Below are positions 6,279 to 61,016 of a stretch of 64,000 nucleotides of DNA, piece by piece (the first letter of the stretch is position 1; every line of letters starts with the position of its first letter). The notes beneath the pieces are model-generated. The model did no database searches. It was not told the origin of the DNA and saw only the letters and a list, made by a program, of their open reading frames with translations. The stretch comes from an uncultured Methanosarcinales archaeon (lineage in GTDB: Archaea; Nanobdellota; Nanobdellia; Woesearchaeales; GW2011-AR15): contig CAYTWW010000002.1 of NCBI GenBank assembly GCA_964441565.1, forward strand, positions 88,032 through 152,031, given 5' to 3'. The translations under genes and the position numbers were made by a program.

Positions 6279-6808
6279 CTACCTTTTGAAGTCAGGAAGA
6301 TCCCATCCTGGAAGATCCTCCTGTCGAAGTTCTGTCTCTGGGTGCTCTTCTCGAGGTTGGCAGCTGTCTGTCCGACAAGCTCCTTGTCGTTCCCTGAGAC
6401 GACTATCTCTGCGCCTTCGATCTGCACCTTGACCTTAGGATCGACCTTCACAGTCCTTGGTACCTTCTCGCCGAGGAGGTTCTTGACCGATACGACGCCG
6501 TTGGCGAATGTGACATTCATCGGGAAGTGGCCTGAACAGACCTTCAGCTTGTATGTGTATCCCTCGGTGACTCCTGTCATCATGTTCCTCAGGAGGACCA
6601 CATAGGTGTTCACTACAGCCTTCTCCTTCTTTGTTGTCTCTTCTGCTGAAATCTCGACCCCGTCAGCGACCTTGACAGAGACAGAAGGGTTTGCGAATGC
6701 CTTTGTCAATGAGCCCTTAGGGCCTGTGACAGTGACATTGTCCCCAGACATCTCTACCTTGACCTTCTCAGGGATATCGAGCTTGACACTGATGTTTTTC
6801 TTTGTCAT
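6275..6808 (-). CDS. rpl6: 50S ribosomal protein uL6 (L6)
   Basis: 177 aa, two-domain L6 pattern, positioned between S8 and L32e. Confidence 0.9.
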   Translation of the reverse strand: MTKKNISVKLDIPEKVKVEMSGDNVTVTGPKGSLTKAFANPSVSVKVADGVEISAEETTKKEKAVVNTYVVLLRNMMTGVTEGYTYKLKVCSGHFPMNVTFANGVVSVKNLLGEKVPRTVKVDPKVKVQIEGAEIVVSGNDKELVGQTAANLEKSTQRQNFDRRIFQDGIFLTSKGR

Positions 6809-6809
6809 C

Positions 6810-7202
6810 TTAATACACGTATGCTACGAGTTTTCCGCCAAGGTTCTTCTTGACTGCCTCTACCTGAGTCATCATCCCCTGGCTTGTTGATACTATGAGC
6901 AGCCCGAACCCGAAGGCAGGCAGATACCTTTTCTCGAACTTCTCATATTCTGTGGCCTTGACATTGAACCTAGGCTTGATCACGCCGCACTTGTTGATGT
7001 TTCCGAGCAGGTTGATTGTGATCGTCCCGCCCCTGTTGTCGACGTTCTCCTTGAACGACCCGATATAGGTGTTGTCCTGGAGGATCTGCAGCACAGTCTT
7101 GATGACCTTTGAGTTGCAGCCTACGGTTATCTCCTTCTTGCCCTGCTTGTCCTCGTTGAGGACATGGGACATGACGTTTGCGAGTGTGTCGTTGAGTGTC
7201 AT
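6810..7202 (-). CDS. rps8: 30S ribosomal protein uS8 (S8)
   Basis: The internal Met (MTLNDTLANVMSHVLNEDKQGKKEITV...) gives a 130-aa S8. The 49-aa upstream extension in the ORF track overlaps the S14 gene, so it was trimmed. Confidence 0.85.
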   Translation of the reverse strand: MTLNDTLANVMSHVLNEDKQGKKEITVGCNSKVIKTVLQILQDNTYIGSFKENVDNRGGTITINLLGNINKCGVIKPRFNVKATEYEKFEKRYLPAFGFGLLIVSTSQGMMTQVEAVKKNLGGKLVAYVY

Positions 7203-15155: not shown

Positions 15156-15546
15156 AATCACCAAGGCACTTAGGACTTCGTCCTGGTGCCACTCGCGGTA
15201 CTCGTGGTGCTGAGGACTTGCGTCCTGGCATTACTCGATTTTCTCGTAACTTCCGATTTACCTGCTTTTACATACTCACGGAATCACCAAGGTACTAAGG
15301 ACTGCGTCCTCGTATCACTCGAAGTATCTCGTGATTCCGATATTCGGCGTGAGCAATCTCGCCGATCGGAATTATGGAACGTCAATATTTTTTCCAGGTC
15401 TCTTTTTGAGGCGTTTGACTCCATTCGGAGTAATTTCATACCTAGACATTTCAAACAAAGAGATTTTCAGAACGGAAAAAGGACGAAAAGACTATGCCTA
15501 ACTCTCCTCAGTGCACCAATCCCAATAAGGGAGCCTCTGGCACTTC
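15156..15546 (+). repeat. Copy 1 of a conserved multi-block intergenic repeat family (longest copy; contains three tandem hairpin units)
   Basis: The ordered blocks are: aatcaccaagg; hairpins ggcac-tt-aggacttcgtcct-g-gtgcc (about 15166-15190), aggacttgcgtcct (about 15213-15226) and aggactgcgtcct (about 15298-15310); the stem TTCCGAT..N22..ATCGGAA; ttttttccaggtctctttttg; agattttcag; and gggagcctctggcacttc (15529-15546). The same blocks recur in the same order near 21.0, 24.3 and 43.5 kb. Confidence 0.75.
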
Positions 15547-19224: not shown

Positions 19225-20907
19225 TCACTTCTTCCTCTTCTTCACAGAGAACTCTTTCCGAATCCAAAAGAAGCAGGCGATGAACCCCCACATGAATCCC
19301 AGTATGAAGAGGACAGGATAGCTGATATCGATCCTTGGCAGCTCGAATCTTTTCTGCCTGAAGTATATGTCCAGCTTCGACAGCTCAATCGCATACTCAG
19401 AATATAGGAGGGATGAGAACTTGTCATTCTCTATGAGCGACCGCGCGTAGTCGTAATAGCTGTATCCGACGATAGGGAAGACCTCCTCTTCCATCTGCCT
19501 GCCTATGATCTGCTCAGCCACATCCATCCTCTCCTCGATGAGCTGCCGAAGCTCTTCCTCCTCAAGGCCGAGAGTGTTCATGATTATGTCGACCTCAGCC
19601 TTCGCCTTGCTTGCCGTATACAGGCACATGCTGTACTGTCGGTCTGAAAGGTCTTTGTACGCATAGGACACCTGCCTCCTGATGTCGTTCAGGGATACAG
19701 GGAGATACTGCCTCACATACTCAAGCCTCTCCTCCACCTCAGATATCTTCCTCTGGCATGACTCCCGCAGAGAGCTTTCGTCGATATCGAACTTCCTCCC
19801 GGGCCTGCCGAAGAAGCTGGACCATGAGTAAGCTGAATGCAGCCTCTCCTCAGCATATGCCAGGTTGTATAGGCTAGTATTAGTCTCGTTTCCTATGCTC
19901 CTGTTGAGATATTCCTCTGCATCGAGGATCCTCTCTGAGACGACCATCATCGTCTGCAGGTCTGTCAGAGTCTCGATATCCTTCGACGATATTTTCTCTC
20001 TGAATGATCCTATCTCTCGCTCGATCCTGTCATGAGTACCTGTCATGTTCGTTATGTTTGCTTCCAGATGCGCTGCGTACTGCAGCTTGACATTGGCACC
20101 GAAGCAGTAGCTTGCTGCACTATAGAATCTCTCTTCCCTGATGGCTGATTCAGCTCTCGCATACAGGTCGGTCGAGTCATTGAGGAGCCATGACTCCTCC
20201 CTTCCCTCCATAAGATCCTCTGTCCTTGCGCATATGCTCTCTGAGATGTTTCTCATCATCTCGATATAATCTGCATTGACGATCAGGGAATAATCATGCC
20301 CAAGATCCTTGCCGATCGTCTCTTTCACAGCCTCCCTCAGGCTTGACACCTTGACAATCCTGATGCCTGTGCTGTTCTCAAGCTCGGCAAGATCAGTATC
20401 ATTGATGCTGCCCCACCTGGGGATGAGGACAGTCGTCATGTTGGAGGAATCAGCATATCTCACCTTCTCCGCGATCCCGCCTACTGGTCCGATCAGCCCA
20501 CCTGAATTTATCGTGCCTGTTATAGCCACATCCTTGTCAAGCGCAGCACCCTCAAGTACGCTCACAGTGAGGATAGATATCGCTGCCCCTGCGCTAGGTC
20601 CTCCGACGATCGCTGCATTTGCCCTGATAGTGTAGTAGAAATCATATCTGCTGCAATCCTTCTCCAGGAAATCGCAAGCTATCTCATTCGCGAACCTTGT
20701 CGACATAACAGTGTCGAGCTTGGTCAGAGGGAATGAATCTATGAATATCCTTCCTGATCCTGGGTGGACATCAAGAAATATGTCTGCTCCGCTGCCTATC
20801 TCGCCAGATCCTGACTCGGAAGTCGCGAGCAGCTTCATGCTGCCTGATGCTGCATATGCGAGCGGCAGCAGCAACAGGAGCAGCGGTACAAGAAGCAGTC
20901 TTTTCAT
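19225..20907 (-). CDS. Secreted, C-terminally membrane-anchored Lon-like serine peptidase (S16 proteolytic domain only, no AAA module)
   Basis: Start re-chosen at MKRLLLVPLLLLLLPLAYAASG (signal peptide); the ORF-track extension overlaps repeat copy 2. Lon proteolytic-domain motifs are present: GGPSAGAAISILTVSVLEG, ITGTINSGGLIGPVGGIAEKV (Ser-Lys dyad context) and TTVLIP. A C-terminal TM helix (VLFILGFMWGFIACFFWI) is followed by KKRKK. Confidence 0.7.
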   Translation of the reverse strand: MKRLLLVPLLLLLLPLAYAASGSMKLLATSESGSGEIGSGADIFLDVHPGSGRIFIDSFPLTKLDTVMSTRFANEIACDFLEKDCSRYDFYYTIRANAAIVGGPSAGAAISILTVSVLEGAALDKDVAITGTINSGGLIGPVGGIAEKVRYADSSNMTTVLIPRWGSINDTDLAELENSTGIRIVKVSSLREAVKETIGKDLGHDYSLIVNADYIEMMRNISESICARTEDLMEGREESWLLNDSTDLYARAESAIREERFYSAASYCFGANVKLQYAAHLEANITNMTGTHDRIEREIGSFREKISSKDIETLTDLQTMMVVSERILDAEEYLNRSIGNETNTSLYNLAYAEERLHSAYSWSSFFGRPGRKFDIDESSLRESCQRKISEVEERLEYVRQYLPVSLNDIRRQVSYAYKDLSDRQYSMCLYTASKAKAEVDIIMNTLGLEEEELRQLIEERMDVAEQIIGRQMEEEVFPIVGYSYYDYARSLIENDKFSSLLYSEYAIELSKLDIYFRQKRFELPRIDISYPVLFILGFMWGFIACFFWIRKEFSVKKRKK

Positions 20908-21000
20908 CCTGCCAAAAAAAGCCAGATTGCTATTAAACCTTTTGGTGATGAACCTGATGCTGCAGAACAGGAGTATCTGCCAAAGGCAAGCAATCAAGAC

Positions 21001-21199
21001 AATCGCCAAGGTACTTAGGACTTGCATCCTTGTAGCACCAAGGTTCCGATTGCGCGTTGGAAGTAGTGATCGGAATAAAAGATAAGTTCCAGTTTTTCCA
21101 GGTCTCCTTTTTTGTAGCAAGATTTTCAGTCATTGAAGAATTACTTTATTTATCTCCCATCACTGCACAAACTGGTGATACGGGAGCCTCAGATGCTTC
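21001..21199 (+). repeat. Copy 2 of the multi-block intergenic repeat family
   Basis: Blocks: aatcgccaagg; degenerate hairpin tacttaggacttgcatcct; gttccgat..N..gtgatcggaata; agtttttccaggtctccttttttg; attttcag; tctcccatcactgcacaaac; gggagcctcagatgcttc. Orientation matches the other copies. Confidence 0.7.
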
Positions 21200-21213: not shown

Positions 21214-21792
21214 CTACGTCCCGTAGCTGTCGACCTTCTCCTTCACTATGCTGTTCAGTGATCTTTCCCGAAACATCATAAGCTCATCCAGGAGCTGCGT
21301 CGCATGCTCAGGATCATTGTAGAATACCCTTACAGTCGATTTCTCAACCGCGGTATTACGCTTAGGATAGATGTATATCGTCAGCTCATATTCAAGCGGC
21401 ATCAGAGCGATCATGTCCTCGATGAACTGAGGCTCCATGCCTTTCTGCCTGTACTGTGTCACAAGCCTGGACTGGAACATTATCCTTTTGTATTTCTCTT
21501 CCTCTGATCTCCTGGCGATGGACTTCATCTGTCTGATGAGGGAATCGACCTTCTCTTCTGTCCCGACAACATCAGTCATACCTTCAGGAAGATCGCCTGG
21601 CTGCGTCTCTGCCTTTGGCTTCGCTATCATCCTTACACCGAATGCTGAAGGTGATGCAGCATACCTGATCTCTATCTCAGAATACTTGTCAAGCACACCC
21701 CTGTCGAACTTCACAAGCTCTCGCTTAGGTGCCTCGACCTTCTCTTTGCCTTCCTTCTTGCTGACCTTGCTAAGGATGTCTTTTACGTCCAC
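21214..21792 (-). CDS. Hypothetical protein
   Basis: 192-aa ORF with no recognised motif; good coding appearance. It ends directly after repeat copy 2. Confidence 0.5.
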   Translation of the reverse strand: MDVKDILSKVSKKEGKEKVEAPKRELVKFDRGVLDKYSEIEIRYAASPSAFGVRMIAKPKAETQPGDLPEGMTDVVGTEEKVDSLIRQMKSIARRSEEEKYKRIMFQSRLVTQYRQKGMEPQFIEDMIALMPLEYELTIYIYPKRNTAVEKSTVRVFYNDPEHATQLLDELMMFRERSLNSIVKEKVDSYGT

Positions 21793-21823: not shown

Positions 21824-24160
21824 CTATTTCTTTGGTTTCTTCGGAGCTTTGACAGATGCCGCTCTCTTCGCTGCTGCAGCGACCTTGCTGGAAGCTTTGC
21901 TCCCAGTCACCTCGGGGTTTTGTGCTGCAGGTTTATCTGCAGTTTTTTCGACAATCTTAGGTGCAGGCTTCGCACCAAGGTTCTGCGTGTATCTGCAAGC
22001 CGGGTATGTCGAACATCCCAGGAACTGGCCATAGACAGACTTCCTGAGGACAAGGTTGCCTTTCTTGCATTGAGGGCATTCCTTGACCTCACCATTCTCG
22101 ATCTTGTCAGCTTCTTTCTTCTGCGCAGTGTCTGTCAGCTTCTTCGAAGGGCATCCAGGATTGAAGCAGACTGTCTGCTTCTTCCTCCCGACGATCTGGA
22201 TGAGGGGAAGATTGCATTCCTTGCAAATCTGGTCTGTCGGGACGATCTTTCCCTTCTGCGGCACAGGATATATTGTCCTGCAGTCTGGATATTGATCGCA
22301 TGCCAGGAATCTCTGCCTGGTCTTCTTTGAACTCTTCAGGACAAGCCTTCCCTTCTTGCAAGTCGGACATTGACCGACATCTGTAGTCATGCTCTCCCTA
22401 TAGCTGACCCGCAGCTCCTCGCCGATCTTGCCCTCCTTCTGCTTGAAATCAGCAAGTATCTCTGTCAGCTCCTTCTTCGCCCTTTCGATGACTTTCGCAC
22501 CAGTCTCCTTCTTCTCCCTGATGCTGTCCATCTCCTCCTCGAAATGGCGTGTCAGTTCTTCTTCGACGATCCTGGGAGAATATTTCTCAAGCACCTCGAT
22601 CGTCTTTATGCCAAGCTCGCTCGCTTCTAGAGCCTTCCCATCCAGATATCCCCTGTCAGCAAGGCTGTCGATTATTTGCGCCCTTGTGGATTTTGTTCCC
22701 AGGTTCCTCTTCTCAAGTTCCTTGATCAGGGATGCCTGCGTGTATCTTTTCGGCGGTTCTGTCTGTTTCGACAGCTTCTTGATCTCCTGCACCTTGACCA
22801 TGCCGCCTTCCTTTAGCGGAGGGAGCTCTTCCTCCTTCTGTTTCGAATAAGGCTCATACAGGACATGCCATCCCTTATCTACCGTGGTCGTGCCTTTGGC
22901 GACAAATATCTCTGTGTTGACATCGATCTTGGCAGTCATCGTCTGCCTCACAGCCCATTCCCCGAAAGTCGCGAAGAACCTCTTCACGATAAGGTCATAG
23001 ATCTTCTTCTTGGGCCCTTCGATTCGGTCAGATTTCTGGCCAGTCGGATATATTGCCGGATGGGCTGGATCATCCTTTGTTCCCTCGTTTGCCTTCAGCG
23101 GCTTTCCCTTCAGTAGCGCATACAGCTTAGCATATTCTGGATTCTCTGAGAGTGCCTGCATTATCTTCGGGAAACCGATCTTCGCAGGAAGCTTCTGCGA
23201 ACTCGTCCTCGGATAGGATATGACTCCTGCCAGGTACAGTTCCTGAGCGACTGATAGAGCCATCGAAGGCGATATGCCAAAGACCCGATAGGCCTCTGTC
23301 TGGAGAGTGGTGAGATCAAATGGGAACGGAGGAGGCTGCTTGAACTCTTTCCTTTCGACCGACTTCACGATGCCATCATGCCCGCTCGTTTTTTTGAGCG
23401 AAGAGTCGCATTGCTTCTCATCCCAGAACTTGTCCATCTCATGCATCGCCACGATCTGGTCCTTGTCATAGGAACCATGCAGTTCAAGCTGCCAGTATTT
23501 CTGCGGCACGAACTTCCTTATCTCTAGCTCCCTGTCCACGATTATCTTGAGGGCTGGACCCTGCACCCTTCCGGATGACAATGTCTTGTATACCTTTGCC
23601 TTCCTAAGCGACAACGTCAATGCCCTGGAGAGATTTATTCCATACAGCCAGTCAAGCACATGCCGTGTCTCCCCTGCGTTTGCCTGCCCCCAGTCTATGG
23701 TTGGATTCTTATCTGAATACGATTCCACGAGGTCTGGCTTTGTGAGCGTGGAGAATTTCATCCTCTCTGCATCCTTCTGCTTGCAGATGAACCTGACGCA
23801 GTTGTATCCTATCAGTTCTCCCTCGATATCGTAATCGCATGCCACTGTATATGCGTCAGCATCCTTGCACAGCTCCTTTATCGCATTCAGGTATTTCTTG
23901 GAATATGCAGCATTCTTGTCCACATCGCTTGTCGGTCTCCATTCGATGTCAAAGCTCGGATAGATGAAGCTCTTCTTCTTCTCAGTCACTGTATACAGAT
24001 GTCCCACAGCGCACGCCACCACAATGTCCCTGCCCTTATGCTTGAGCGTATAATATGGCACTCCTGAAAGATTGAGTTTCTTCGGAGAAGAATCAGCGAG
24101 AGCATACGCTATCTTCTGCGCAGCGCTCGGTTTCTCGGTGATTATGAGCTCATAACCCAT
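21824..24160 (-). CDS. topA: DNA topoisomerase IA (TopA/Topo III-like) with four C-terminal C4 zinc ribbons and a lysine-rich tail
   Basis: Start re-chosen at MGYELIITEKPSAAQKIAYAL (Toprim domain). The conserved type IA core is present, with the active-site-region Tyr in SYPRTSS, and C4 ribbons (CPTCKKG..C..C, CKEC...C..C, CPQCKKG...C..C). Confidence 0.9.
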   Translation of the reverse strand: MGYELIITEKPSAAQKIAYALADSSPKKLNLSGVPYYTLKHKGRDIVVACAVGHLYTVTEKKKSFIYPSFDIEWRPTSDVDKNAAYSKKYLNAIKELCKDADAYTVACDYDIEGELIGYNCVRFICKQKDAERMKFSTLTKPDLVESYSDKNPTIDWGQANAGETRHVLDWLYGINLSRALTLSLRKAKVYKTLSSGRVQGPALKIIVDRELEIRKFVPQKYWQLELHGSYDKDQIVAMHEMDKFWDEKQCDSSLKKTSGHDGIVKSVERKEFKQPPPFPFDLTTLQTEAYRVFGISPSMALSVAQELYLAGVISYPRTSSQKLPAKIGFPKIMQALSENPEYAKLYALLKGKPLKANEGTKDDPAHPAIYPTGQKSDRIEGPKKKIYDLIVKRFFATFGEWAVRQTMTAKIDVNTEIFVAKGTTTVDKGWHVLYEPYSKQKEEELPPLKEGGMVKVQEIKKLSKQTEPPKRYTQASLIKELEKRNLGTKSTRAQIIDSLADRGYLDGKALEASELGIKTIEVLEKYSPRIVEEELTRHFEEEMDSIREKKETGAKVIERAKKELTEILADFKQKEGKIGEELRVSYRESMTTDVGQCPTCKKGRLVLKSSKKTRQRFLACDQYPDCRTIYPVPQKGKIVPTDQICKECNLPLIQIVGRKKQTVCFNPGCPSKKLTDTAQKKEADKIENGEVKECPQCKKGNLVLRKSVYGQFLGCSTYPACRYTQNLGAKPAPKIVEKTADKPAAQNPEVTGSKASSKVAAAAKRAASVKAPKKPKK

Positions 24161-24287
24161 GGGTAAGCAAGCAAGAATCAAGGCTGCCTATAAATAATTT
24201 CAGGTTTGGTATCTGAAAAGAAAAATCTGCTATCCTGCCGAAATGAAGTGTTGATATTGATGAGAAGGTACTCAGGACTTCCTAAGT

Positions 24288-24480
24288 AATCGCCAAGGCT
24301 TCCGATCTTAGGCGTAAGCAATCTCGCCGATCGGAAGAAAAAAAGTTTCATTTTTCCAGGTCTCTTTTTTGGGAGCTTGGAACTTGTTTAAAAAAAGATT
24401 TTCAGTACGAAATAAGACTAAAAATTCTTTTTTTCTCCCATCATTGCACAAACAACTGATATGGGAGCCTCTGGCGCTTC
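24288..24480 (+). repeat. Copy 3 (most compact) of the multi-block intergenic repeat family
   Basis: Blocks: aatcgccaagg; cttccgat..N..cgccgatcggaag; agtttcatttttccaggtctcttttttg; aaagattttcag; ttctcccatcattgcacaaac; gggagcctctggcgcttc (24463-24480). It lies between topA and the next minus-strand gene. Confidence 0.75.
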
Positions 24481-24515
24481 CTTTCATCTGTCTAATCTGA
24501 TTTGCCTGTAGGTAT

Positions 24516-25052
24516 TCACATAACTCTCGCAAGGAACGGAGCGATATTCAGGAACAGCACAAGGTTCACAAGGATATTGCTTATGCTGTACATCAGGTTC
24601 TTGCTGATATCATAATTGAACACGAAATGGTAGAATACGAAAACGAACATGTTCTTGGCGAAAGTGGCAAGCACCCCAAGCCAGAAGAGCGGCAGTGGCA
24701 CATAAGGCACAAGGAAGGCAGCGATCACATTCCCTATCACCATTGGCACCAGGAACGGTGAATAGTATCCATAGAACGCGCTAGACAAGACTGTCCCGAA
24801 TATCGCGATAAGCATCCCTGCCTTCAGCCCGTAATTGATCGTGCACAGCACGATGCCAAGAGTTAGGATCTCTATTTCGATAGGCAGCTGAAAATCCCTC
24901 TTGTAGGCAGAGAGGACGATGTTTCCCACGATGAAGAATGTGACGAATATAGTGGCCTTTATCTCGTTATAGAACAGGAACACAAGAGGCAGCGAGAACA
25001 GCCCTGCGATTATGTACAGGATGATCCTTTTTCTCCTCTTGTTCTTTTCCAT
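24516..25052 (-). CDS. Multi-pass membrane protein, hypothetical
   Basis: 178 aa, 5-6 predicted TM helices, N-terminal KRRKR. Confidence 0.55.
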   Translation of the reverse strand: MEKNKRRKRIILYIIAGLFSLPLVFLFYNEIKATIFVTFFIVGNIVLSAYKRDFQLPIEIEILTLGIVLCTINYGLKAGMLIAIFGTVLSSAFYGYYSPFLVPMVIGNVIAAFLVPYVPLPLFWLGVLATFAKNMFVFVFYHFVFNYDISKNLMYSISNILVNLVLFLNIAPFLARVM

Positions 25053-25086
25053 AAAGAATATAGCCTGCCTGTCCTTTTTCCAAGGG

Positions 25087-25953
25087 ATGCGTGATATAGT
25101 AATTAAGCTTTCTGAAAGGATAAGGAGAGAGTGCTGTTCGCTCGTCCTTCCTGGAGAGAATTACAGGGAGCTGAGTCCATCAGGAGATGATGATCTGACA
25201 TTCATAGACGGAGGGAATGCCGAAGTATTCGCCTCCCCTTCAGTGTCTGTTCACCTCATCCGGCTGCATGCAGTCACCGCTGGCAGCGAGAAGAAGCACT
25301 TCCACAAGGAATTCTTCTGTATCGCGACGATGGAAGGGAGGAAGGCGAGAGTAGAGGCTTTGGACCAGGAGTTCCCCTCCCTCGACATCGAGGTCGACAA
25401 GGATAGCACATGCGGTTCAGCATGCGATGCCTTCAGGAGGTTATCTGAGCTGAGGTTCGCTCTTGGATTCAAGACACCTGTCGTGCTCGATGGCAGCTTC
25501 GAGACACGCACAGATGAGGATAAAGCCCTTGTCCAAGACCTTCTGACGAAGAGATCATGCGCCATATCCAAGACATGTTCCCTCCTGTCTGATGAAGGTT
25601 ACTCGCTTGCTGCTGCAAGCATGAGATGCTCCCCATTCCCGCTATTCTCATACCAGCTCCCAGCGAAAGGATTCTGCTCATACCTTGTCAAGCTGCACAA
25701 GTCATCTAAGCATGCATTCCGTCTGGACTGCTCAGACACATTCAGGGATGCGCCTTCCAGCTTGGTGAGATTCTGCTCAGACCCTATCTTCCCAGGTTAT
25801 CCCTATCCGCTAATCGAAGCAGACAAGCTTGCCCGAATCTCGAAGAAGGAAGCAGGCTCCATCCGCCTCAGATTGACGCTTGCACTCGACAAGGATGGAG
25901 AACTGCTGCAGAATTCCAGTACTGCGCATGACATACTTGACAACGTGCAGTAG
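25087..25953 (+). CDS. Hypothetical protein (faint resemblance to NurA/RNase-H-like nucleases, unverified)
   Basis: Start re-chosen at MRDIVIKL; the ORF-track extension overlaps the divergent membrane-protein gene. LTFIDGGNAEVF is an early acidic motif reminiscent of the NurA IDGS motif, but there is no further support. Confidence 0.45.
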   Translation: MRDIVIKLSERIRRECCSLVLPGENYRELSPSGDDDLTFIDGGNAEVFASPSVSVHLIRLHAVTAGSEKKHFHKEFFCIATMEGRKARVEALDQEFPSLDIEVDKDSTCGSACDAFRRLSELRFALGFKTPVVLDGSFETRTDEDKALVQDLLTKRSCAISKTCSLLSDEGYSLAAASMRCSPFPLFSYQLPAKGFCSYLVKLHKSSKHAFRLDCSDTFRDAPSSLVRFCSDPIFPGYPYPLIEADKLARISKKEAGSIRLRLTLALDKDGELLQNSSTAHDILDNVQ

Positions 25954-26432: not shown

Positions 26433-26906
26433 CTAAGAATTCAATATCGTCTTTGCCTCTGCCTTTCTCAGGTGCTCGACAAAAGTGCTTTTTGACAGGC
26501 CAAAGTATTTGGCAAGCTTTGTCACAGAGATTCTCCTGGGCCATTCATAATATCCGAGGTCCTTTGCCAGGTTGAGTACGCTCAACTGGATGCTTGTGAG
26601 CTTATTCTCTATCTGTCTCTTCTTTATAGATCTCAGCTCCACTTTGCCGAGGAATTGTAGATCTCTGTACAGCCTTGTGAGTTCCTCCCTCCTGTCAGCC
26701 CCTACATCCCAGATCTCCTTCCCATCCTTGAATTCCACAGAGTCAAGGACAAAGCAATCATTCTTCAGAACATAATAAGTCACAGACTCATACTTCCCTT
26801 CATTGTAGGTATGGAGTCTAAGATAAAGGAAATCCTTGCCTTCATCCATTGTCTCGATCTTTCTGCATATCTTGAAAGTTTTTAGGGTCTTGATGACATT
26901 TTCCAT
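26433..26906 (-). CDS. HTH (HTH_10/Bat-type) DNA-binding transcriptional regulator
   Basis: Start re-chosen at MENVIKTL (ATG 26906-26904). C-terminal helix-turn-helix LGYYEWPRRISVTKLAKYFGLSKSTFVEHLRKAEAKTI. The longer ORF-track version overlaps the divergent kinase gene. Confidence 0.6.
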   Translation of the reverse strand: MENVIKTLKTFKICRKIETMDEGKDFLYLRLHTYNEGKYESVTYYVLKNDCFVLDSVEFKDGKEIWDVGADRREELTRLYRDLQFLGKVELRSIKKRQIENKLTSIQLSVLNLAKDLGYYEWPRRISVTKLAKYFGLSKSTFVEHLRKAEAKTILNS

Positions 26907-28401: not shown

Positions 28402-30384
28402 CTAATACACTGCCACATACTTGACAATGCTGCACTCCCTGACATCCTTGACTGTGCAGAACCTCTGGATCTTCTCCTTGACAGAATCCAGGGACACTTT
28501 CGGCTCCATCTGTTCTGCAGGTGCCTCAGCGAATGATATCCTGTCATAGCATGCGACCTTCGAAAGATGGGAGAATATGTGTTTTTCAGACAGGCGCATG
28601 CCTGATCCATCTACATCTATAAGCCCTTGCGCCACCAGGCTTGCCACGACTTCCCCTATCCCGAGCCCAAGCTGCTTTGCCATGTCCTCTTCAGTGAATG
28701 TGCCAAGCTTGAAAGCCTGATGCAGCACTTTTATCTGGTCCTTCGATAGCCCTGCGAGCTCTGGCAGCCTTTTCGTCCGCATGGTCTCGATGTCTGTCAC
28801 GATCTCCCCGTTCTCCATCTCGCAGAGCAGGTTGAATTCCATGCCCTTCTCAGAGCATAGGAACATATAGGCAGGTATAAGCACTGTCTCCACCTTGGAC
28901 ACCTTCTTCTCGCTCATCAGCTCGATGTCCTTGGGTGACATCTTCGGTTTCACCAGAGGGATCATCTTCTTCTCCTCGAACTCTGTCAGTTTGTCGAAGA
29001 ACTTTCCTTCATTCTGCTCAAGCATCTCTACAGCATGTCCTCCATGCTGCGTCAGCCTTGGCCTGATGTTCACGAATAGCGGCATGTCTGCTATGCCTGT
29101 GATCAGAGCTGAACCGATAGGCAGGTTCTTAATCTCGCTCTCAGACTCGGCTGTGATACCCTCGACAGAGCTTGCGATCGCCTTCAGGTCACTGGGGTTC
29201 GTGACCTTCAGGATTATTTGTGTCGTGCACTGCGAGACGACAGACTTGTCTATCCTAGCAGGCCTCTGCGTTATCAGGCAAAGCCCGAGCCCGAACTTCC
29301 TCCCCTCTGATGCGACAGTACGCAGGATCTTCGAGCATCTCGCTTCTCCAAACGACCTCTCAGGGCAGAAGTTATGCGCTTCCTCGATCACACAGAAGAA
29401 CGGTGGCACCTTGTCTTTCTTCCTCAGCTCAAACAGGTCTTTCAGAAGCTTGTACAGGAGTATCTCAGTCACATCAGGATTCATGCCCTTGAGATTGATG
29501 ACAGTGCATTTCCCCGGCTGGACAAGCTCGTTGTAAGGAGAATAGCTATCTGTGAAGATATCAAGGTTCTTCAGGTACTCAAGGTTGTTGATGAGCGTCC
29601 ATTTGGCGGTATTCTCTTCCTTGTCGAGCGCGAACAGGACATTTGTGAAGTTGATCTTGTCAAGATGCTTGATCGCGCTGTATAGGATCCCCAGCTGCGT
29701 GTTGGACAGCTTTCCAGGTATGAGCTGGATTATCTCCGCAGGTGTCAGCTCGCTGTTGAGTTTTAGCGGACGAAGACTTGGATTCAGAGATGGATCTCCG
29801 AATTCCTGGACATTACTGAATGCCTTCGGCACAAGCCCGAACTTCGTCAGATTCTCCTTCTCCTCGGTGTTTGCATGCTTGAGCGAGGAGTACTCGCCAT
29901 GCGGATCGATTATCACGATAGGGACATTCTTCCCTATTATCTCCTCGACAAGGACCCCTGTCGTGTATGATTTGCCTGAACCTGATTTCGCCAGCACTAT
30001 CACATGCTTTGTCAGAAGCTTCGTGAGGTCCAGGTAGATGTCGATATCCTTTCCTTCGAGCTTTCCCACATATGCCCCCTTCTCAGTCTGCGGAAGGGCT
30101 ATGACTGACCTGACGAAATCATCCTCAGCACGAAGGACCTCAGAATTCTGGTCGAAAGGTATCCTTATGGACTTTATCCTGCCTTTGTCATCCTTATAAC
30201 CGATGACTGTGCATCTAGCGACATCCTTGTCAGTCCTCTCGATCTCCATTACCTGGCATAGCACCCAGTCATACACCTTGTGCATGACCTGGACGAACTC
30301 GAACTTCCTCGTCTCCTTCTCGACAATGAACTGGAAGTCGGTCGTGGTTATCTTGCCGAAGATATGTCCAAGGATCATCTGCAC
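28402..30384 (-). CDS. HerA/FtsK-superfamily (DUF87) P-loop ATPase with N-terminal HAS-barrel-like region
   Basis: 660 aa. Walker A is VLAKSGSGKSYTTGVLVEE and Walker B/DEAH-like is FFCVIEEAHNF. TQRP motif is LITQRPARIDKSV. The C-terminal region is helical and HTH-like. Confidence 0.8.
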   Translation of the reverse strand: MQMILGHIFGKITTTDFQFIVEKETRKFEFVQVMHKVYDWVLCQVMEIERTDKDVARCTVIGYKDDKGRIKSIRIPFDQNSEVLRAEDDFVRSVIALPQTEKGAYVGKLEGKDIDIYLDLTKLLTKHVIVLAKSGSGKSYTTGVLVEEIIGKNVPIVIIDPHGEYSSLKHANTEEKENLTKFGLVPKAFSNVQEFGDPSLNPSLRPLKLNSELTPAEIIQLIPGKLSNTQLGILYSAIKHLDKINFTNVLFALDKEENTAKWTLINNLEYLKNLDIFTDSYSPYNELVQPGKCTVINLKGMNPDVTEILLYKLLKDLFELRKKDKVPPFFCVIEEAHNFCPERSFGEARCSKILRTVASEGRKFGLGLCLITQRPARIDKSVVSQCTTQIILKVTNPSDLKAIASSVEGITAESESEIKNLPIGSALITGIADMPLFVNIRPRLTQHGGHAVEMLEQNEGKFFDKLTEFEEKKMIPLVKPKMSPKDIELMSEKKVSKVETVLIPAYMFLCSEKGMEFNLLCEMENGEIVTDIETMRTKRLPELAGLSKDQIKVLHQAFKLGTFTEEDMAKQLGLGIGEVVASLVAQGLIDVDGSGMRLSEKHIFSHLSKVACYDRISFAEAPAEQMEPKVSLDSVKEKIQRFCTVKDVRECSIVKYVAVY

Positions 30385-32758: not shown

Positions 32759-34259
32759 TCCCTGGTGCTGAGTATGGAAGTCGGATGAGCGCCCTTGAAT
32801 CAGGCACATATCCGCCTCGCATGTTCTTCGATTGCGAAGCCTTGGCAAGAGCATTGAATGACAGCATCTCAGCATAGAACTGTTCGACCGAATCCAGGGA
32901 TACAAGGCCTCTGTATCCTGTGTCTGCCACTGGGTTTGAAGGGTCGACCTGGGAAGAAAGCCGTCCGATGGTATCCTTGAAATGGTATTCCTTGTTCATT
33001 CTCTTCTCAAACCAGCTGACAGCTATGCCTGGCGACCTGTCCCTCTTCTGGAACATCCCCTTCCTATCATACGACAAGGCCCCCTCATATACCTTTGAGA
33101 GTTGTTTCCATAGCATATCCGAGGATATCTTCCTTGGCTTCTCTCCCCTCAGCTGAGAGTATTTCATTATCTTCTCCGCAAGCCCCTGGAGTTCATCATC
33201 ATCGCTTATCCTGTCTACAACCCGTTCGGTATCGTTTATGATCGCCTGGGCTAGTGCCATCCTCATCCCGAACAGCATTGGTGCCCTTGGGCCTTCAGCA
33301 ATCATCTCCACTGTCTCGTTCTGCAGTGCCCAGTTCCTATAATGCGTCTCCCTCTTCCCCTCTGTCCTGTCTACGAGAACATATTTGAGGGTATCGATGT
33401 CTTCAGGCTTTGTATCACGCGTGAAATCGAATGTGTATTCCCTTTCAGTATTATGGATCCTGTCAGCGAACTTGACAGATACTACAACATCCCTCACCAC
33501 AGTATCCTTGACTGAGAGCATCCTCTGGATGTACTCGACATATGACTCGAAAGGGCTTCGGGTTATCGCCTTAAGCCCATCTGAAAGCTGTCTCTCAAGG
33601 ATATCATCTCCCAGATCAAGATACCCTACGACGATATTGATGATCCGATCCCTCTCTGAGATATACTCCTGCTCCATTTGCCCAAGCTGTCTTTGCGCCT
33701 TGTCGATGAGCGCCAGATACATAGAAGGAAGCCTGCCCATACCCTCCCTTGTCTCTTTTCGCAACTGGTTTATCTGGCTCCTGTATTTCTCCTTGAACTC
33801 TGGAAGATCCTCTATCGTGTCATGCAGGAGAGACAGGTAGGACATGAATGGGCTCCCGAAGTCTCCCGCCAGCCTGTCTGCGATCAGTGAGACACCGATC
33901 ACATGAGAAAGCCTTGATTTCTCAGGGGAGAACTTCCTCCTCTTGTCTTTCCTGTTTTCGAAATCATAATAGATATGCTTGTCAAGATTGAGAATCCTTA
34001 TCAGCACGTCACTATCAAGTGCATCATCATGCCTGAGAGAATAATCGCTCGCCAGCCTCCTTGCGATAGGAGCCAGCCTTTTCCTCAATGGTGCTCTGCT
34101 GATGAAATCATCAAGCTCAAACATGCCATATGTGCTGGCCTTCAAAACATAAGGATCGAGCAGGTCTCCGATAGCTATGCCTTCATGGGACAGCATGACT
34201 GCTCTCTCTGTGATACCGTCGATGGATTCCTGCGTCAGAAGCTCCTCAAGGTCAGGCAT
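32727..34259 (-). CDS. HD-domain protein with RelA/SpoT-type (p)ppGpp-hydrolase-like signature, plus N- and C-terminal extensions
   Basis: 510 aa. SHVIGVSLIADRLAGDFGSPFMSYLSLLHDTIEDL carries the H...HD motif, and about 130 aa later VKFADRIHNTERE echoes the RSH hydrolase block (cf. KLADRLHNMR). Confidence 0.6.
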   Translation of the reverse strand: MPDLEELLTQESIDGITERAVMLSHEGIAIGDLLDPYVLKASTYGMFELDDFISRAPLRKRLAPIARRLASDYSLRHDDALDSDVLIRILNLDKHIYYDFENRKDKRRKFSPEKSRLSHVIGVSLIADRLAGDFGSPFMSYLSLLHDTIEDLPEFKEKYRSQINQLRKETREGMGRLPSMYLALIDKAQRQLGQMEQEYISERDRIINIVVGYLDLGDDILERQLSDGLKAITRSPFESYVEYIQRMLSVKDTVVRDVVVSVKFADRIHNTEREYTFDFTRDTKPEDIDTLKYVLVDRTEGKRETHYRNWALQNETVEMIAEGPRAPMLFGMRMALAQAIINDTERVVDRISDDDELQGLAEKIMKYSQLRGEKPRKISSDMLWKQLSKVYEGALSYDRKGMFQKRDRSPGIAVSWFEKRMNKEYHFKDTIGRLSSQVDPSNPVADTGYRGLVSLDSVEQFYAEMLSFNALAKASQSKNMRGGYVPDSRALIRLPYSAPGIRIPLLTALS

Positions 34260-38176: not shown

Positions 38177-38217
38177 AAATCAAGGCGGACCAGGTAGCAA
38201 TATTTAAGGATTTTCAT

Positions 38218-38241
38218 GAAAAGAGTGAAGGGATAGGGATT
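38218..38241. repeat. Direct repeat: duplicate of the tRNA-Leu 3' end (gaaaagagtgaAgggatagggatt versus gaaaagagtgaGgggatagggatt at 38311-38334), att-site-like remnant
   Basis: 23 of 24 nt are identical to the 3' acceptor/T-arm end of the tRNA (minus strand) 93 bp away. A third partial T-arm-like fragment (gtgttcaaatcctgac) lies between them. Confidence 0.6.
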
Positions 38242-38318
38242 CCCAGGAACCGTAAGTTCATGGGCACACGAATGAAATGAGTGTGTGTTCAAATCCTGAC
38301 CCGAACGAATGAAAAGAG

Positions 38319-38458
38319 TGAGGGGATAGGGATTTGAACCCTAGTAGGCACTAAGCCAACAGATGACTTACATTGATCGTTCATCGCACTGCGATTTCGC
38401 AGCTCTCACCACTCAAATGCCTTGAGTCTGTCCCGTTTGGCCGCTCCGGCATCCCCTC
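38319..38458 (-). tRNA. tRNA-Leu (anticodon CAA) with a 56-nt intron at the canonical 37/38 position; CCA not encoded
   Basis: The minus-strand sequence has an acceptor stem GAGGGGA/TCCCCTC with discriminator A, then U8, a D-arm (CCGG..GG..), anticodon stem ACAGA/TCTGT and loop CUCAAG|A, a 15-nt variable arm (TGGCTTAGTGCCTAC), and a T-arm TAGGG-TTCAAAT-CCCTA. The intron, GCATTTGAGT..., pairs with the anticodon (ACTCAA/TTGAGT). The mature length is 84 nt. Confidence 0.7.
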
Positions 38459-39914: not shown

Positions 39915-40086
39915 ATTATTGAAGCATATATTCCAGGGCCATTTTAAACTTTTTGCGTAACTCTTCAGAAGTAAATAATCCACTTTTCCTCTCCAAGAAT
40001 AAGGCAACAAGGCAGGATGGATTTCAATACTTGCGGATGAATAAAAAATAATATATAATAAGGCCTAATAGAGCAAAAATTTATCC

Positions 40087-42767: not shown

Positions 42768-43473
42768 TTACAAGAACCAGATCGAGGCGCTGCTATTTTC
42801 GTCAGGCCGGTTCATGGAAGCTGAGACGCTCGTAAACCTTATCGGAGCTTCAGGCAAAGGTGTCATCGTCAGCAACATAAATAAGCTCAAGGAAGAATAC
42901 GAGGCTCGGGATTCTCCACTTATGATAGTCGAGGAGAACGATTCCTGGAAGATAAATGTCAGGGAAAGGTATCTCCCGCTTGTGAGGCGCATAGTCGCAG
43001 AGCTTGAGCTGCCAAAGACAGTCCTTGAGACACTTGCGGTCATCGCATGGAAGGCGCCTGTCCTCCAGAGCGATGTCATCGACATTCGGCATAACAAAGC
43101 ATATGAGCACATCGACCAGCTTGAGCAGCTCGGATTCGTCATCAAGGAGAAGATGGGGAGGAGCTATCAGCTCAAGCTCTCAAGCAAGTTCTTCGACTAC
43201 TTCGAAGTGGATGGGAACAAGGGCATCAGGGAGATCTTCAAGGACATGAAGAAACCGCAAGAAGAGCAGCCGCCAGCAGGAGAGATTTCTGTACCCATAG
43301 CGCCCATCTCATCAGTTGCACCAGTTCAACAGGAATCTGCATTGGAGACAGTCCAAAAAGAACCTGTCCCCCCTGCCGAGGAGAAAGTTGCTGAGCCTGC
43401 CGACAGTGTCGAGCCGAAGGATCCGCTTGATGAAAAGCAGGAGGAGAATTTCCAGCCTGGCCTTGACGACTGA
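42760..43473 (+). CDS. scpB: Segregation and condensation protein B (ScpB) with acidic/Pro-rich C-terminal tail
   Basis: IEALLFSSGRFMEAETLVNLIG and LPKTVLETLAVIAWKAPVLQSDVIDIRH match the two ScpB winged-helix signatures. Confidence 0.75.
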   Translation: MADYKNQIEALLFSSGRFMEAETLVNLIGASGKGVIVSNINKLKEEYEARDSPLMIVEENDSWKINVRERYLPLVRRIVAELELPKTVLETLAVIAWKAPVLQSDVIDIRHNKAYEHIDQLEQLGFVIKEKMGRSYQLKLSSKFFDYFEVDGNKGIREIFKDMKKPQEEQPPAGEISVPIAPISSVAPVQQESALETVQKEPVPPAEEKVAEPADSVEPKDPLDEKQEENFQPGLDD

Positions 43474-43511
43474 GTTGTCAAAAAAGCACTCTGAATATCA
43501 GTCGACATTCT

Positions 43512-43880
43512 GGTCGCTTCCAATCACCAAGGCACTGAGGACTTCGTCCTGGTGCCGCTCGAATTCTCTCGTGGTGATCAGGACTAGCATCACTCGAGGT
43601 GTCTCGTGATTTCCGATATCACGCAATGGAAGCGGTGATCGGAATTAACAAACGTCTTTAGTTTTTCCAGGTCTCTTTTTTTGAGAACTTGTAGATGTTT
43701 CAAAAAAAAGAGATTTTCAGTTACGAAAAAACTTCAAAAATTCTTTTTACTCCCCTCACTGCACATGACCGTAGAAGGGAGCCTCTGGCGCTTCTGTTAT
43801 TGGCTCAATAGGATCACAAGGCACTTAGGACTTACGTCACTATAACCTCTGGTCCCAGGCAAGAGCCTCCGGCACTTCTC
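43512..43880 (+). repeat. Copy 4 of the multi-block intergenic repeat family (with an appended partial second unit)
   Basis: Blocks: aatcaccaagg; hairpin ggcactgaggacttcgtcctggtgcc; tttccgat..N..gtgatcggaatt; agtttttccaggtctctttttttg; aagagattttcag; ctcccctcactgcacatgacc; gggagcctctggcgcttc (43777-43794). A partial second unit follows: atcacaaggcacttaggacttacgtcac ... agagcctccggcacttctc (43862-43880). Confidence 0.75.
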
Positions 43881-59678: not shown

Positions 59679-59716
59679 TCACATATTCAGGGCATTGGGG
59701 CTCCCGCCACCATGCC
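59679..59716. repeat. 38-bp direct repeat, copy B (tcacatattcagggcattggggctcccgccaccatgcc), right border of the AT-rich insertion
   Basis: See copy A; overlaps the ATPase 3' end (…WHGGGSPNALNM-stop). Confidence 0.7.
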
Positions 59717-61016
59717 AGCTGACCCTTGGCCTAATCCTTATCTCGTGGATCGATTCGTTCATATCATCAAAGACAATCGCTGTGCCTTTCAGCCTTGGAA
59801 GGTCTTCCATCGCTTCCATGATACCGTCCCTGTTGTAGCTCTGCGCAAGCAGCATCAGCGCCTGCACATCGATATCCGCGGTGACCCTGTGGGAAAGAAC
59901 AGTATCTGACTGTGTCATCACATCTGTATGTATCTTGCCTGGCTGCTGGGTCGCGAGTATAAGCGATATGCCTGGCTGCCTTCCCTCTCTCATTATGATC
60001 TTGAGCGGCTCAGTGGCCGCATTCTTGTCCTTCTCGTCCCTCGGAAGGAACTCATGCGCCTCGTCGATTATCAACCACACAAGAGGCATCTTCTTTGCCT
60101 TCTCAGGATTCTTGATAGCATGGTTATCGCCGCTCATCCATCCCTTCTCTTTGTTGATGTGCTGGAATTCCTCATCCTTTCTGGAGAGCATCCTTGATAT
60201 GAATAGATGCTTGGCCACAAGCCCAAGCACCATCGCTTTCACATCCCATCCTGAAGGAAGCGTAGCATAGCAGCTGACATCGAGTATCGAGATCTGTCCA
60301 GGAGCAGCGAGGAAATCTAGCTCGGTAGTCTCCTCTGAGAAGACACCCCAGCTGTCTGCGAGCCTGAACATGGCGACTGCTTCCATCCTCTCTTCCAAGG
60401 GGAACTCATCATTCTTCTTCAGAGCCTCCTCGATATCCTTGATGTCATAGTCTTTCTTCGTGTCCTTCAGCATCTGGATAGTGTCGTTTATCATGACACC
60501 TATTCCTGAGAACTTCTTCTGCTTGAATGCCTCAAGCCAGTCATCTGCATCAAGGTCTGATGGCTTGATCGAGAACGGAAAGTCAGTGGGGATGCCTTTC
60601 TTCTTGTATTCCTCATAGAACTTGCATGGCGTGAATATCCTTACATTCACCCCTTGCGGCTTGAGCCCAAGCTCTGCCAAGCCTTTCTCCTCGTCGACAT
60701 TAGGCATCTTCATTGTCCAGTAGACACCCATCGTGTCGATCAGGATTATCGAAACATTTTCCTTGATCTCATCCTTCATCAGCGAGAACCCTTCTGCCAC
60801 GACACCCATCGTATATGATTTTCCGCTTCCCCGCTTGCCGAATATAGAAAGGACGTGGCTTCCTGAGACATCCAGGTAGACAGGATTGCAGAGCTTTGTT
60901 GAGTATGCATCCACCTCCTGGTATTTGTTCCCTACATAGATGCATCCGAGAGTCCCGTACCTCTTCGCATCTCCGGCGCTCCTCCCGATTATCAGGGGAG
61001 TCTCTGTGTCTATCAT
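59679..61016 (-). CDS. HerA/DUF87-family P-loop ATPase (second copy in window, 445 aa)
   Basis: Walker A IFGKRGSGKSYTMGVVAEG. Walker B/DEAH-like LVWLIIDEAHEFLP. ATQQPGKI corresponds to the TQRP-type motif. Confidence 0.75.
   Translation of the reverse strand: MIDTETPLIIGRSAGDAKRYGTLGCIYVGNKYQEVDAYSTKLCNPVYLDVSGSHVLSIFGKRGSGKSYTMGVVAEGFSLMKDEIKENVSIILIDTMGVYWTMKMPNVDEEKGLAELGLKPQGVNVRIFTPCKFYEEYKKKGIPTDFPFSIKPSDLDADDWLEAFKQKKFSGIGVMINDTIQMLKDTKKDYDIKDIEEALKKNDEFPLEERMEAVAMFRLADSWGVFSEETTELDFLAAPGQISILDVSCYATLPSGWDVKAMVLGLVAKHLFISRMLSRKDEEFQHINKEKGWMSGDNHAIKNPEKAKKMPLVWLIIDEAHEFLPRDEKDKNAATEPLKIIMREGRQPGISLILATQQPGKIHTDVMTQSDTVLSHRVTADIDVQALMLLAQSYNRDGIMEAMEDLPRLKGTAIVFDDMNESIHEIRIRPRVSWHGGGSPNALNM

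Follow-up and report, generated by a model that had tools for sequence, protein, structure and literature searches.

What are the four intergenic segments that share the same ordered sequence blocks between unrelated genes of an uncultured archaeon? They lie in a stretch of 64,000 nucleotides (GenBank assembly GCA_964441565.1, contig CAYTWW010000002.1, positions 88,032 to 152,031 of the forward strand), which we call the window, and they had first been noticed from its letters alone. This sequence-only reading regarded them as a discrete, conserved, multi-block, highly structured intergenic repeat family, and our analysis agrees. We favour, with evenly balanced confidence, the interpretation that the four copies belong to a lineage-specific, non-coding, modular, hairpin-rich interspersed repeat family, which is closest in architecture to the BOX elements and bacterial interspersed mosaic elements (BIMEs) of bacteria, and which would have spread between genes and might mark the ends of transcripts. 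Copies are labelled c1 to c4 (Table). Their coordinates, and those of open reading frames (ORFs) and single-nucleotide polymorphisms (SNPs), follow the numbering of the window; 80 kb denotes the 64-kb window with 16 kb of extra flank.

Reading the four regions bore out that the same blocks stand in the same order, on the + strand and at the coordinates first proposed, with an adjustment to c4. The c4 locus was originally given as 43512-43880; its complete unit begins at 43522, and the letters at 43510-43521 are a remnant resembling block D. The blocks recur in excess of expectation: TTTTTCCAGGTCTC has four exact matches and one unrelated match with two mismatches, where 0.7 are expected at up to two mismatches; GGGAGCCTCTGGCGCTTC at up to three mismatches has four matches against 0.08 expected; and AATCRCCAAGG has five exact matches on the + strand, two of them in c1. 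In leave-one-out profile searches (nhmmer), each omitted copy was recovered with E between 2e-20 and 9e-35 (4e-26 for the complete unit of c1, 2e-20 for c2, 9e-35 for c3 and 1e-32 for c4). A profile hidden Markov model of the core found no match beyond the four copies in the 80 kb and three loci of related genomes. The 150-nt flanks of the copies share no significant similarity (lowest of 12 uncorrected pairwise P = 0.02), and the flanking genes, L3, PLD, Lon, topA and ScpB, are unrelated. The copies are therefore discrete elements and not segmental duplications. The leave-one-out E-values and the unrelated flanks refute both chance low-complexity matching and segmental duplication, which the sequence-only reading had named as the explanations that could undo its proposal.

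Each complete unit begins with the 5' block AATCRCCAAGG. This is followed by the 27-nt hairpin module H1 (GGYAC-NN-AGGAC-loop-GTCCT-N-GTRYC), jointed by ACTCG-N(4-6)-CTCGTG linkers, and by hairpin H2 (TTCCGAT-N(18-23)-ATCGGAA), block A (T5-6-CCAGGTCTC-Y-T4-7-G) and a variable A/T palindromic spacer of 5-57 nt. The right end of the spacer (A-run-GAGA) is an inverted repeat of the TCTC-T-run in c1, c3 and c4. The right half of the unit consists of block B (AGATTTTCAG), an A/T-rich sequence of about 25-31 nt able to pair with block B, block C (CTCYCNTCANTGCAC; a hairpin CTCCC...GGGAG carrying the conserved TCAnTGCAC) and the self-folding 3' block D (GGGAGCCTCTGGCRCTTC). H1 is present 0-3 times, as had been proposed, and degenerate copies occur in addition. 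The H2 stem is likewise where it was first seen, with a measured spacing of 18-23 nt in place of about 22. Copies measure 193-391 bp, and indels break every reading frame between them. The remnant that abuts the 5' block of c4, CTGGTCGCTTCC, is one indel apart from the block D sequence CTGGCGCTTCC (judged by eye), and the mini-unit at the right of c4 derives from a unit by internal deletion.

Over shared columns, any two copies are 66-73% identical. Invariant columns are concentrated in runs of 14, 10 and 9, the top three summing to 33 against 19 expected from shuffled columns (P ~3e-4). The folding of whole copies gives z-scores from -4.1 to -5.2, and folding analysis shows the CTCCC...GGGAG and TTCCGAT...ATCGGAA stems, both suggested earlier, to be real. 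Two pairs in the lower stem of H1 display compensatory change (C-G to U-A and A-U to G-C), and 76% of cells are paired in the alignment of eight H1 instances, three of which are degenerate. H1 hairpins form locally in the minimum-energy folds of c4 and of the complete unit of c1; in the fold of full c1 the second H1 is local and the first pairs elsewhere. H2 keeps 11-16 pairs around an inner stem that reads GGCG/CGCC in c1 and c3 and is TCAC/GTGA-like in c2 and c4. By this inner stem, c1 goes with c3 and c2 with c4, whereas by the 5' block, the H2 junction and block C the pairs are c2 with c3 and c1 with c4. The conflict between these groupings points to exchange between copies or to shuffling of modules. 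The copies are old, with about 30% divergence, and have retained their blocks and stem pairing.

The host is a Woesearchaeota-type DPANN archaeon: the best named matches of topA, which adjoins c3, are in Candidatus Woesearchaeota, the nearest topA outside the host population is only 71% identical, and the window carries on its minus strand an archaeal ribosomal-protein operon from L3 through SecY. Metagenome contigs of 186 kb (Ga0255811_10893858 of JGI 3300023207) and 144 kb from the Joint Genome Institute (JGI) match the window; further samples with this population are 3300023203, 3300020812/13, 3300021561, 3300021843 and 3300029799. The same population occurs in at least seven samples at 99.8% identity or more with the elements in place, and no presence/absence polymorphism of the copies was seen across these samples. 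One population SNP, T to A at 21070 in three samples, falls within H2 of c2, in the 3' arm, and would disrupt one A-T pair; it is the only SNP within an element besides a variant described below.

Every copy occupies a spacer between co-directional genes, with start codons assigned by reading, and lies 15-56 nt past the upstream stop and about 90-300 nt ahead of the downstream start. A promoter-like TATA stretch (again by reading) is found in the remainder of the spacer, between the copy and the downstream gene. Relative to their neighbours, c1 to c3 run antisense and c4 runs sense, as originally reported, and the element is indeed tied to no single gene or orientation. The assigned starts are 24160 for topA (MGYELIITEKP...), 43976 for the gene after c4 and 20907 for the Lon-like gene, whose product begins with a signal-peptide-like MKRLLLVPLL...; c2 lies between this last start and the stop of a 192-aa gene at 21214, and the ScpB stop at 43473 is upstream of c4. 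Three gene calls appear to be artefacts of the repeats. The Lon-like call (19225-21120, minus strand, 631 aa) extends into c2 and is likely about 560 aa long, given the start at 20907 and a homologue of 566 aa in the relative L120; the topA call (21824-24181, minus strand) begins seven codons upstream of the likely ATG at 24160; and a spurious 59-aa ORF (24308-24487, minus strand) is called on c3 in seven samples.

We compared these spacers with those of the two nearest relatives, in which the local order of genes is preserved, L120 (GCA_016935095.1 JAFGRO010000076.1, 67% topA identity) and L122 (71% topA identity). The spacer between the 196-aa gene and Lon in L120 is 29 nt long, and its host equivalent, which holds c2, is 306 nt long; the spacer between the 178-aa gene and topA in L122 has 78 nt, and its host equivalent, which holds c3, has 355 nt. 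Host spacers with copies are 4-10 times longer than those of the relatives, and a profile search did not find the element in the L120 or L122 loci. The spacers are unalignable at 67-71% topA identity; their difference in length speaks for gain here or for loss in the relatives, and there is no empty site at the nucleotide level. DPANN genomes are small and tightly packed, so that non-coding inserts of 200-400 bp stand out.

L120 has an intergenic repeat of its own, in two copies (2652-2766 and 6745-6859) that are 72% identical over 115 nt. It forms a GC-rich island in an AT-rich genome, with a closing stem, three hairpins and four compensatory pairs, and has no Rfam match. Homology to the element was rejected in the absence of an nhmmer match between them. 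Lineage-specific structured intergenic repeats may be common in Woesearchaeales.

An alternative left junction of c1 came to light through the 133-aa ORF that spans this copy. Used as a HMMER query against 1.84 billion representatives, the ORF matched a 138-aa ORF (P0122), which led to L144, a 3.9-kb contig from sample 3300020812; the one further match of the search was a spurious tandem-repeat protein. L144 is identical to the window from 15282 rightwards except for one SNP in block C. Its left unit (within L144 1-170) consists of the 5' block, one H1, a linker and TTCCGATTTAC, which is one H1 fewer than in c1, with about 10% substitutions, and the approximately 95 nt preceding this unit have no counterpart in the 80 kb. 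Another contig of the same sample (L119), coming from the L3 side, stops inside c1 at 15278. L144 is either another copy elsewhere that shares a long identical stretch with c1, or a co-existing strain recombined at the element, and either reading implies more copies and ongoing rearrangement. The repeats also appear to have caused errors of assembly and annotation: the contigs of this sample break in c1, and both the 59-aa and the 138-aa ORF are called on the repeat.

Searches for further copies found none. A scan of 185,579 species genomes with TTTTTCCAGGTCTCNTTTT returned 107 loci, all of them chance matches to a single block with no second block nearby. The pattern ATCGGAA-N(10-25)-TTTTTCCAGGTCTC matched nine loci in JGI metagenome contigs (evidently excluding the source samples), none of which is the element; two scans of viral contigs (IMG/VR) gave only chance matches, and BLASTN against phage and plasmid records gave no match. 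As protein probes, a 1912-aa six-frame concatenate returned nothing from a list so swamped that even the known 59-aa ORF was missed, and a projected peptide profile of four rows recovered nothing but the ORF of c3, which maps to one and the same locus in seven samples. Look-ups of 90% clusters gave singletons. The block sequences appear in no relevant paper of the searchable literature.

The architecture most resembles that of the BOX elements of Streptococcus pneumoniae and S. suis (boxA-boxB(n)-boxC), which combine fixed 5' and 3' modules with an internal module that is absent or repeated, folds independently and contributes to extensive predicted structure (PMC3049150). BOX elements are intergenic, usually downstream of coding sequences, where they can form 3' extensions of operons; they have no identifiable target-site duplication and attract spurious ORF calls (PMC3049150). 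In the archaeal element, correspondingly, the 5' block and blocks A-D are fixed, H1 occurs 0-3 times and folds locally, and the 59-aa ORF is called on c3. The resemblance is one of architecture, with no sequence relationship expected across domains: the host is archaeal, fixed blocks are more numerous in a longer unit, the copies are far more diverged (66-73% identity), and oligo-T runs are present on both strands. The repetitive extragenic palindromes (REPs) of Proteobacteria, which form BIMEs and REPINs and belong with REP-associated tyrosine transposases (RAYTs), are likewise short imperfect palindromes that join further motifs in mosaic intergenic elements after stop codons, with proposed roles in termination and stabilisation of mRNA 3' ends and with neither terminal inverted repeats nor target duplications (PMC2817692, PMC3116915). 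At 27 nt, H1 is within their range of 20-40 nt for an imperfect palindrome. Unlike REPs in BIMEs, however, H1 modules are direct and not alternating or inverted, they carry no GTAG/CGTC tag, no RAYT is encoded in the 80 kb, and the element has long conserved blocks that are not palindromic.

The proposal of an element resembling a MITE (miniature inverted-repeat transposable element) fares less well. The element shares with MITEs of the terminal-inverted-repeat type, as in the MITE-Tracker census of archaeal genomes (PMC11602168), its small size, lack of coding capacity, structure, dispersal and A/T-rich centre, and the short orthologous spacers of the relatives also agree with this proposal. 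Terminal inverted repeats of at least about 10 bp at both ends are present in one of the four copies, however: the left end matches the reverse complement of the right end at 18 of 21 positions in c3, and the ends of other copies yield runs of 4-8 nt or gapped, low-scoring alignments. The target-site duplications that the sequence-only reading had suggested looking for did not appear, the flanks sharing no direct repeat at any of the four loci. The element thus resembles the modular BOX and BIME type more than the MITE type with terminal inverted repeats. SPRITE and Correia-type repeats offer a further parallel, as dispersed repeats in which a stem and a U-rich tract resemble a terminator and whose insertion alters the transcript ends of neighbours (PMC3049150), although here the host is an archaeon and the effect is deduced from the letters. 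Interspersed palindromic and MITE-like repeats are already known in archaea: a Woesearchaea genome is among the archaeal genomes of highest MITE density, with 105 MITEs per Mb (PMC11602168), and palindromes of REP-like form are on record from across the archaea (PMC12306157). Within the literature searched, this particular family is undescribed. An element without consistent terminal inverted repeats or target-site duplications would probably be missed by MITE finders that rely on them, so that repeat content may be under-counted.

Other known repeat systems were considered and rejected. The template and variable repeats of diversity-generating retroelements do not apply, as differences between copies are not adenine-specific and no reverse transcriptase was found. 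Origin-recognition boxes and a dif site misfit in length, dyad pattern or distribution. Integron attC sites (R''/L''-L'/R', 60-150 nt, bounding single-gene cassettes) are shorter than the elements (193-391 nt), which by reading lack RYYYAAC/GTTRRRY cores at their ends, and an attC array is at odds with elements separated by housekeeping operons.

We propose that the family has spread, and still rearranges, by a mechanism that would leave neither terminal inverted repeats nor target duplications, candidates being a Y1 (HUH) transposase of RAYT or IS200 type that recognises single-strand hairpins, or recombination between copies. Once placed, a copy would offer hairpins and then oligo-T runs to transcripts arriving from either side, and could end transcripts in both directions, stabilise their 3' ends or insulate neighbouring transcription units from each other. 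Such bidirectional action would explain the tolerance of both orientations. Archaeal RNA polymerase depends for termination on oligo-T and not on a hairpin. Every copy has two T runs in block A, following H2 on the + strand, and in c3 and c4 the A-run arm yields T7-8 on the - strand, following the C/D hairpins. In c1, c3 and c4 the first run of at least T5 after the upstream stop, on the gene strand, is inside the element, 91-188 nt downstream; several other genes of the window have a run of at least T5 within 0-35 nt of the stop. The distribution of G.U pairs, which make intact H1 and H2 more stable on the + strand and the C/D half slightly more so on the - strand, is a slender hint of two convergent halves. 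Judged from this arrangement, transcript-end signalling or insulation is the probable role of the hairpins and of the oligo-T runs on both strands. If they do supply transcript ends or insulation, operon structure would be changed: the topA, 196-aa and Lon genes of L120 stand 29 nt apart, while those of the host are separated by elements and promoter-like stretches.

Several observations weigh against this interpretation. The right arm is missing from c2, and no run of T5 or longer occurs in this copy on the strand of its flanking genes, so that the terminator role cannot hold for every copy. Four copies and one alternative junction were examined. With no copy in any other genome, metagenome or viral contig searched, mobility rests on the spacer lengths, and the relatives, at 67-71% identity, could instead have lost spacer sequence. 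The scanned ORFs and precomputed Pfam calls of the 80 kb include no transposase of any kind, and the copies are old and fixed in the seven or more samples. Blocks conserved at about 70% overall identity could equally well reflect a functional RNA, a protein-binding site or descent from a master copy. Finally, all four copies point in the same direction, which a gene-neutral selfish element does not need, although with four copies this has a chance of 1 in 8.

A family of small structured RNA genes is a second possibility, which we regard as tentative. The element would encode one RNA closed by pairing of the end blocks, or else two convergent RNAs, the left one on the + strand (H1, H2 and a U-run) and the right one on the - strand (reverse-complemented D and C hairpins, then a U-run). 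The strongly negative folding z-scores, the compensatory changes of H1 and the two variants of H2 would all suit such genes, as would the invariant blocks that pairing does not explain (TCAnTGCAC, AGATTTTCAG and CCAGGTCTC) and the existence in L120 of a two-copy multi-branch element. Owing to G.U pairs, intact H1 and H2 are clearly more stable on the + strand (for example -16.9 against -9.3 kcal/mol for H1 c1-2, and -14.4 against -5.9 kcal/mol for H2 of c2), and in three of four copies the - strand gives the C/D half a slight gain in stability. Palindromic DNA, however, folds on both strands regardless of function, as illustrated by c3 (-69.5 on the + strand and -72.3 on the - strand). The closing stem, by reading, is broken in c2 and in the mini-unit and displays no covariation, and truncated or deleted units (the left unit of c1 and the mini-unit of c4) are typical of repeats and not of genes.

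The promoter is a further difficulty. The sequence-only reading had proposed ncRNA (non-coding RNA) genes with their own promoter, citing a TATA-like stretch ahead of the 3' blocks. That stretch is missing in c2, no promoter-like motif stands at a fixed distance from either end, and none is conserved upstream of the left end. The internal oligo-T runs on both strands are moreover expected to stop archaeal RNA polymerase before it has passed through the element, and none of the tests supported the proposal as it was framed. A promoter inside the element was rejected because the TATA-like stretches lack conservation and are followed almost immediately by a T-run on either strand. The element, which the sequence-only reading had not recognised as a described one, has no Rfam match at the gathering threshold in the window, and with E up to 10 three copies gave noise, the best C/D-box matches reaching 14.6-21.7 bits against thresholds of 38-45. 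ARAGORN found no tRNA-like structure in the elements. Among known classes, a C/D-box small RNA on the - strand (AUGAUGG ... CUGA) was rejected for wrong spacing, lack of C'/D' boxes and degeneracy in c1 and c4, and an H/ACA RNA was rejected as there is no pocket and no ACA box.

A related idea is that function, and not master-copy descent, preserves the blocks. The family would then be an undescribed multi-copy class of structured Woesearchaeales RNA with lineage-specific counterparts such as the two-copy element of L120, or a DPANN counterpart of the REP-RAYT system with strand-specific single-strand insertion. We consider this doubtful.

An unlikely alternative, and a more specific version of the mobility step in the interpretation we favour, is that the hairpins are REPs or palindrome-associated transposable elements (PATEs), recognised as single-stranded DNA by a Y1 transposase, RAYT or IS200/IS605, encoded elsewhere. 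It would account for strand-specific insertion, all four copies being on one strand whatever the direction of the genes (with the same chance of 1 in 8 noted above), for the lack of terminal inverted repeats and target duplications, for the 27-nt imperfect palindromes with compensatory changes and for the adjacency of units in c1 and c4, which is that of REPs in BIMEs. A Y1 transposase is attractive because the RAYT-type K07491 is the only transposase KEGG Orthology entry with strict matches among 256 Nanobdellota proteomes (bioRxiv 10.64898/2026.05.13.725050). No such transposase is encoded in the 80 kb, however, and the direct order of the H1 modules departs from the alternation of BIMEs. 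By reading, the foot of the hairpin carries no GTAG/CGTC tag of the kind described for REPs (PMC3733652). The sequences flanking the left end on its 5' side (gaag, agac, aagt and ttcc) share no conserved tetra- or pentanucleotide, and the H1 hairpins on the left do not resemble the C/D hairpins on the right.

It is quite improbable that the copies are cis-acting DNA cassettes bound by a chromosomal protein, for example a transcription regulator or chromosome-organisation factor, and define a local regulon or domain. Invariant blocks of 9-14 nt with variable spacers between them, the dyads TTCCGAT/ATCGGAA and GGCAC/GTGCC, and the confinement of the copies to 29 kb in one absolute orientation, with none in the other 51 kb, would be in keeping with this, and c4 adjoins scpB, itself located after an SMC-sized gene without a Pfam match. 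The neighbouring genes (ribosomal operon, Lon, topA, ScpB) nevertheless have no functional theme, the copies stand after stops and, by reading, upstream of the TATA stretches and not over them, variable module numbers and truncated units are unlike operators, and no candidate binding protein was identified. Chance low-complexity matching or duplication of longer regions is almost certainly wrong: the A/T-rich spacers are of low complexity, but block counts greatly exceed shuffled expectation, and nothing was found in its support.

Table. Positions of the element copies, their parts and associated remnants in the window.
Feature	Position	Strand	Remarks
c1, whole copy	15156-15546	+	
c1, truncated left unit	15156-15281	+	5' block AATCACCAAGG, two H1, 5' arm of H2 only (TTCCGATTTAC)
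c1, left-unit H1 modules	15165-15191, 15206-15233	+	ACTCG..CTCGT linkers
c1, complete unit	15282-15546	+	5' block, one H1, H2, blocks A-D
c1, complete-unit H1	15291-15317	+	
c1, complete-unit H2	15335-15371	+	
c1, block A	15388-15408	+	T6-CCAGGTCTC-T5, then 57-nt spacer
c1, block B	15461-15470	+	AGATTTTCAG
c1, block C	15502-15516	+	
c1, block D	15529-15546	+	GGGAGCCTCTGGCACTTC
c2, whole copy	21001-21199	+	5' block, one H1
c2, H1	21010-21037	+	
c2, H2	21044-21075	+	TCAC/GTGA-type inner stem with G.U pairs
c2, block A	21093-21114	+	Followed by nearly deleted central spacer (5 nt)
c2, block B	21120-21129	+	
c2, block C	21154-21168	+	
c2, block D	21182-21199	+	Diverged
Degenerate H1 remnant	24262-24287	+	AAGGTACTCAGGACTTCCT; directly upstream of c3
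c3, whole copy	24288-24480	+	Minimal complete unit without intact H1; 5' block
c3, H2	24300-24336	+	
c3, block A	24351-24371	+	
c3, block B	24396-24405	+	
c3, block C	24435-24449	+	
c3, block D	24463-24480	+	
Remnant before c4	43510-43521	+	CTGGTCGCTTCC; resembles the 3' terminal block, abuts the 5' block of c4; read directly
c4, whole copy	43522-43880	+	
c4, complete unit	43522-43794	+	Sense to flanking genes; 5' block
c4, intact H1	43531-43557	+	
c4, degenerate H1	43573-43599	+	
c4, H2	43611-43644	+	
c4, block A	43662-43683	+	Followed by central 11-bp A/T palindrome
c4, block B	43711-43720	+	
c4, block C	43750-43764	+	
c4, block D	43777-43794	+	
c4, mini-unit	43811-43880	+	GATCACAAGG, degenerate H1, block-D-like GAGCCTCCGGCACTTC

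Some features of the surrounding sequence were recorded alongside the repeats. Gene orientation changes from minus to plus at a divergent spacer of 76 nt (40011-40086), and the cumulative GC skew is lowest at about 40 kb; the ORFs scanned include no recognised Orc1/Cdc6. A gene for tRNA-Leu(CAA), interrupted by a 56-nt intron, is located at 38318-38458 on the minus strand and was found by ARAGORN only when introns were allowed, default ARAGORN and Rfam having missed it. The sequence ATGAAAAGAGTGAGGGGATAGGGATT (+ strand, 38309-38334) is the last 26 nt of this gene plus trailer, and it has a 96% repeat 93 nt away, at 38216-38241, which resembles an att-type duplicate of a tRNA 3' end, such as an integrating element leaves behind. 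Contig L139 (sample 3300021561) is identical to the window except for alignment breaks at 26689-26793 and 33056-33087; in these structural variants the HTH_10 and PfkB calls differ, and a 510-aa gene is split into 427 and 109 aa. Three paralogues of HerA-like (DUF87) ATPases are encoded in the 80 kb, at 28402-30384 and 59679-61016 of the window and at 16770-18092 of L126, all on the minus strand, and one of them is 2.4 kb from a NurA-like gene (25012-25953).

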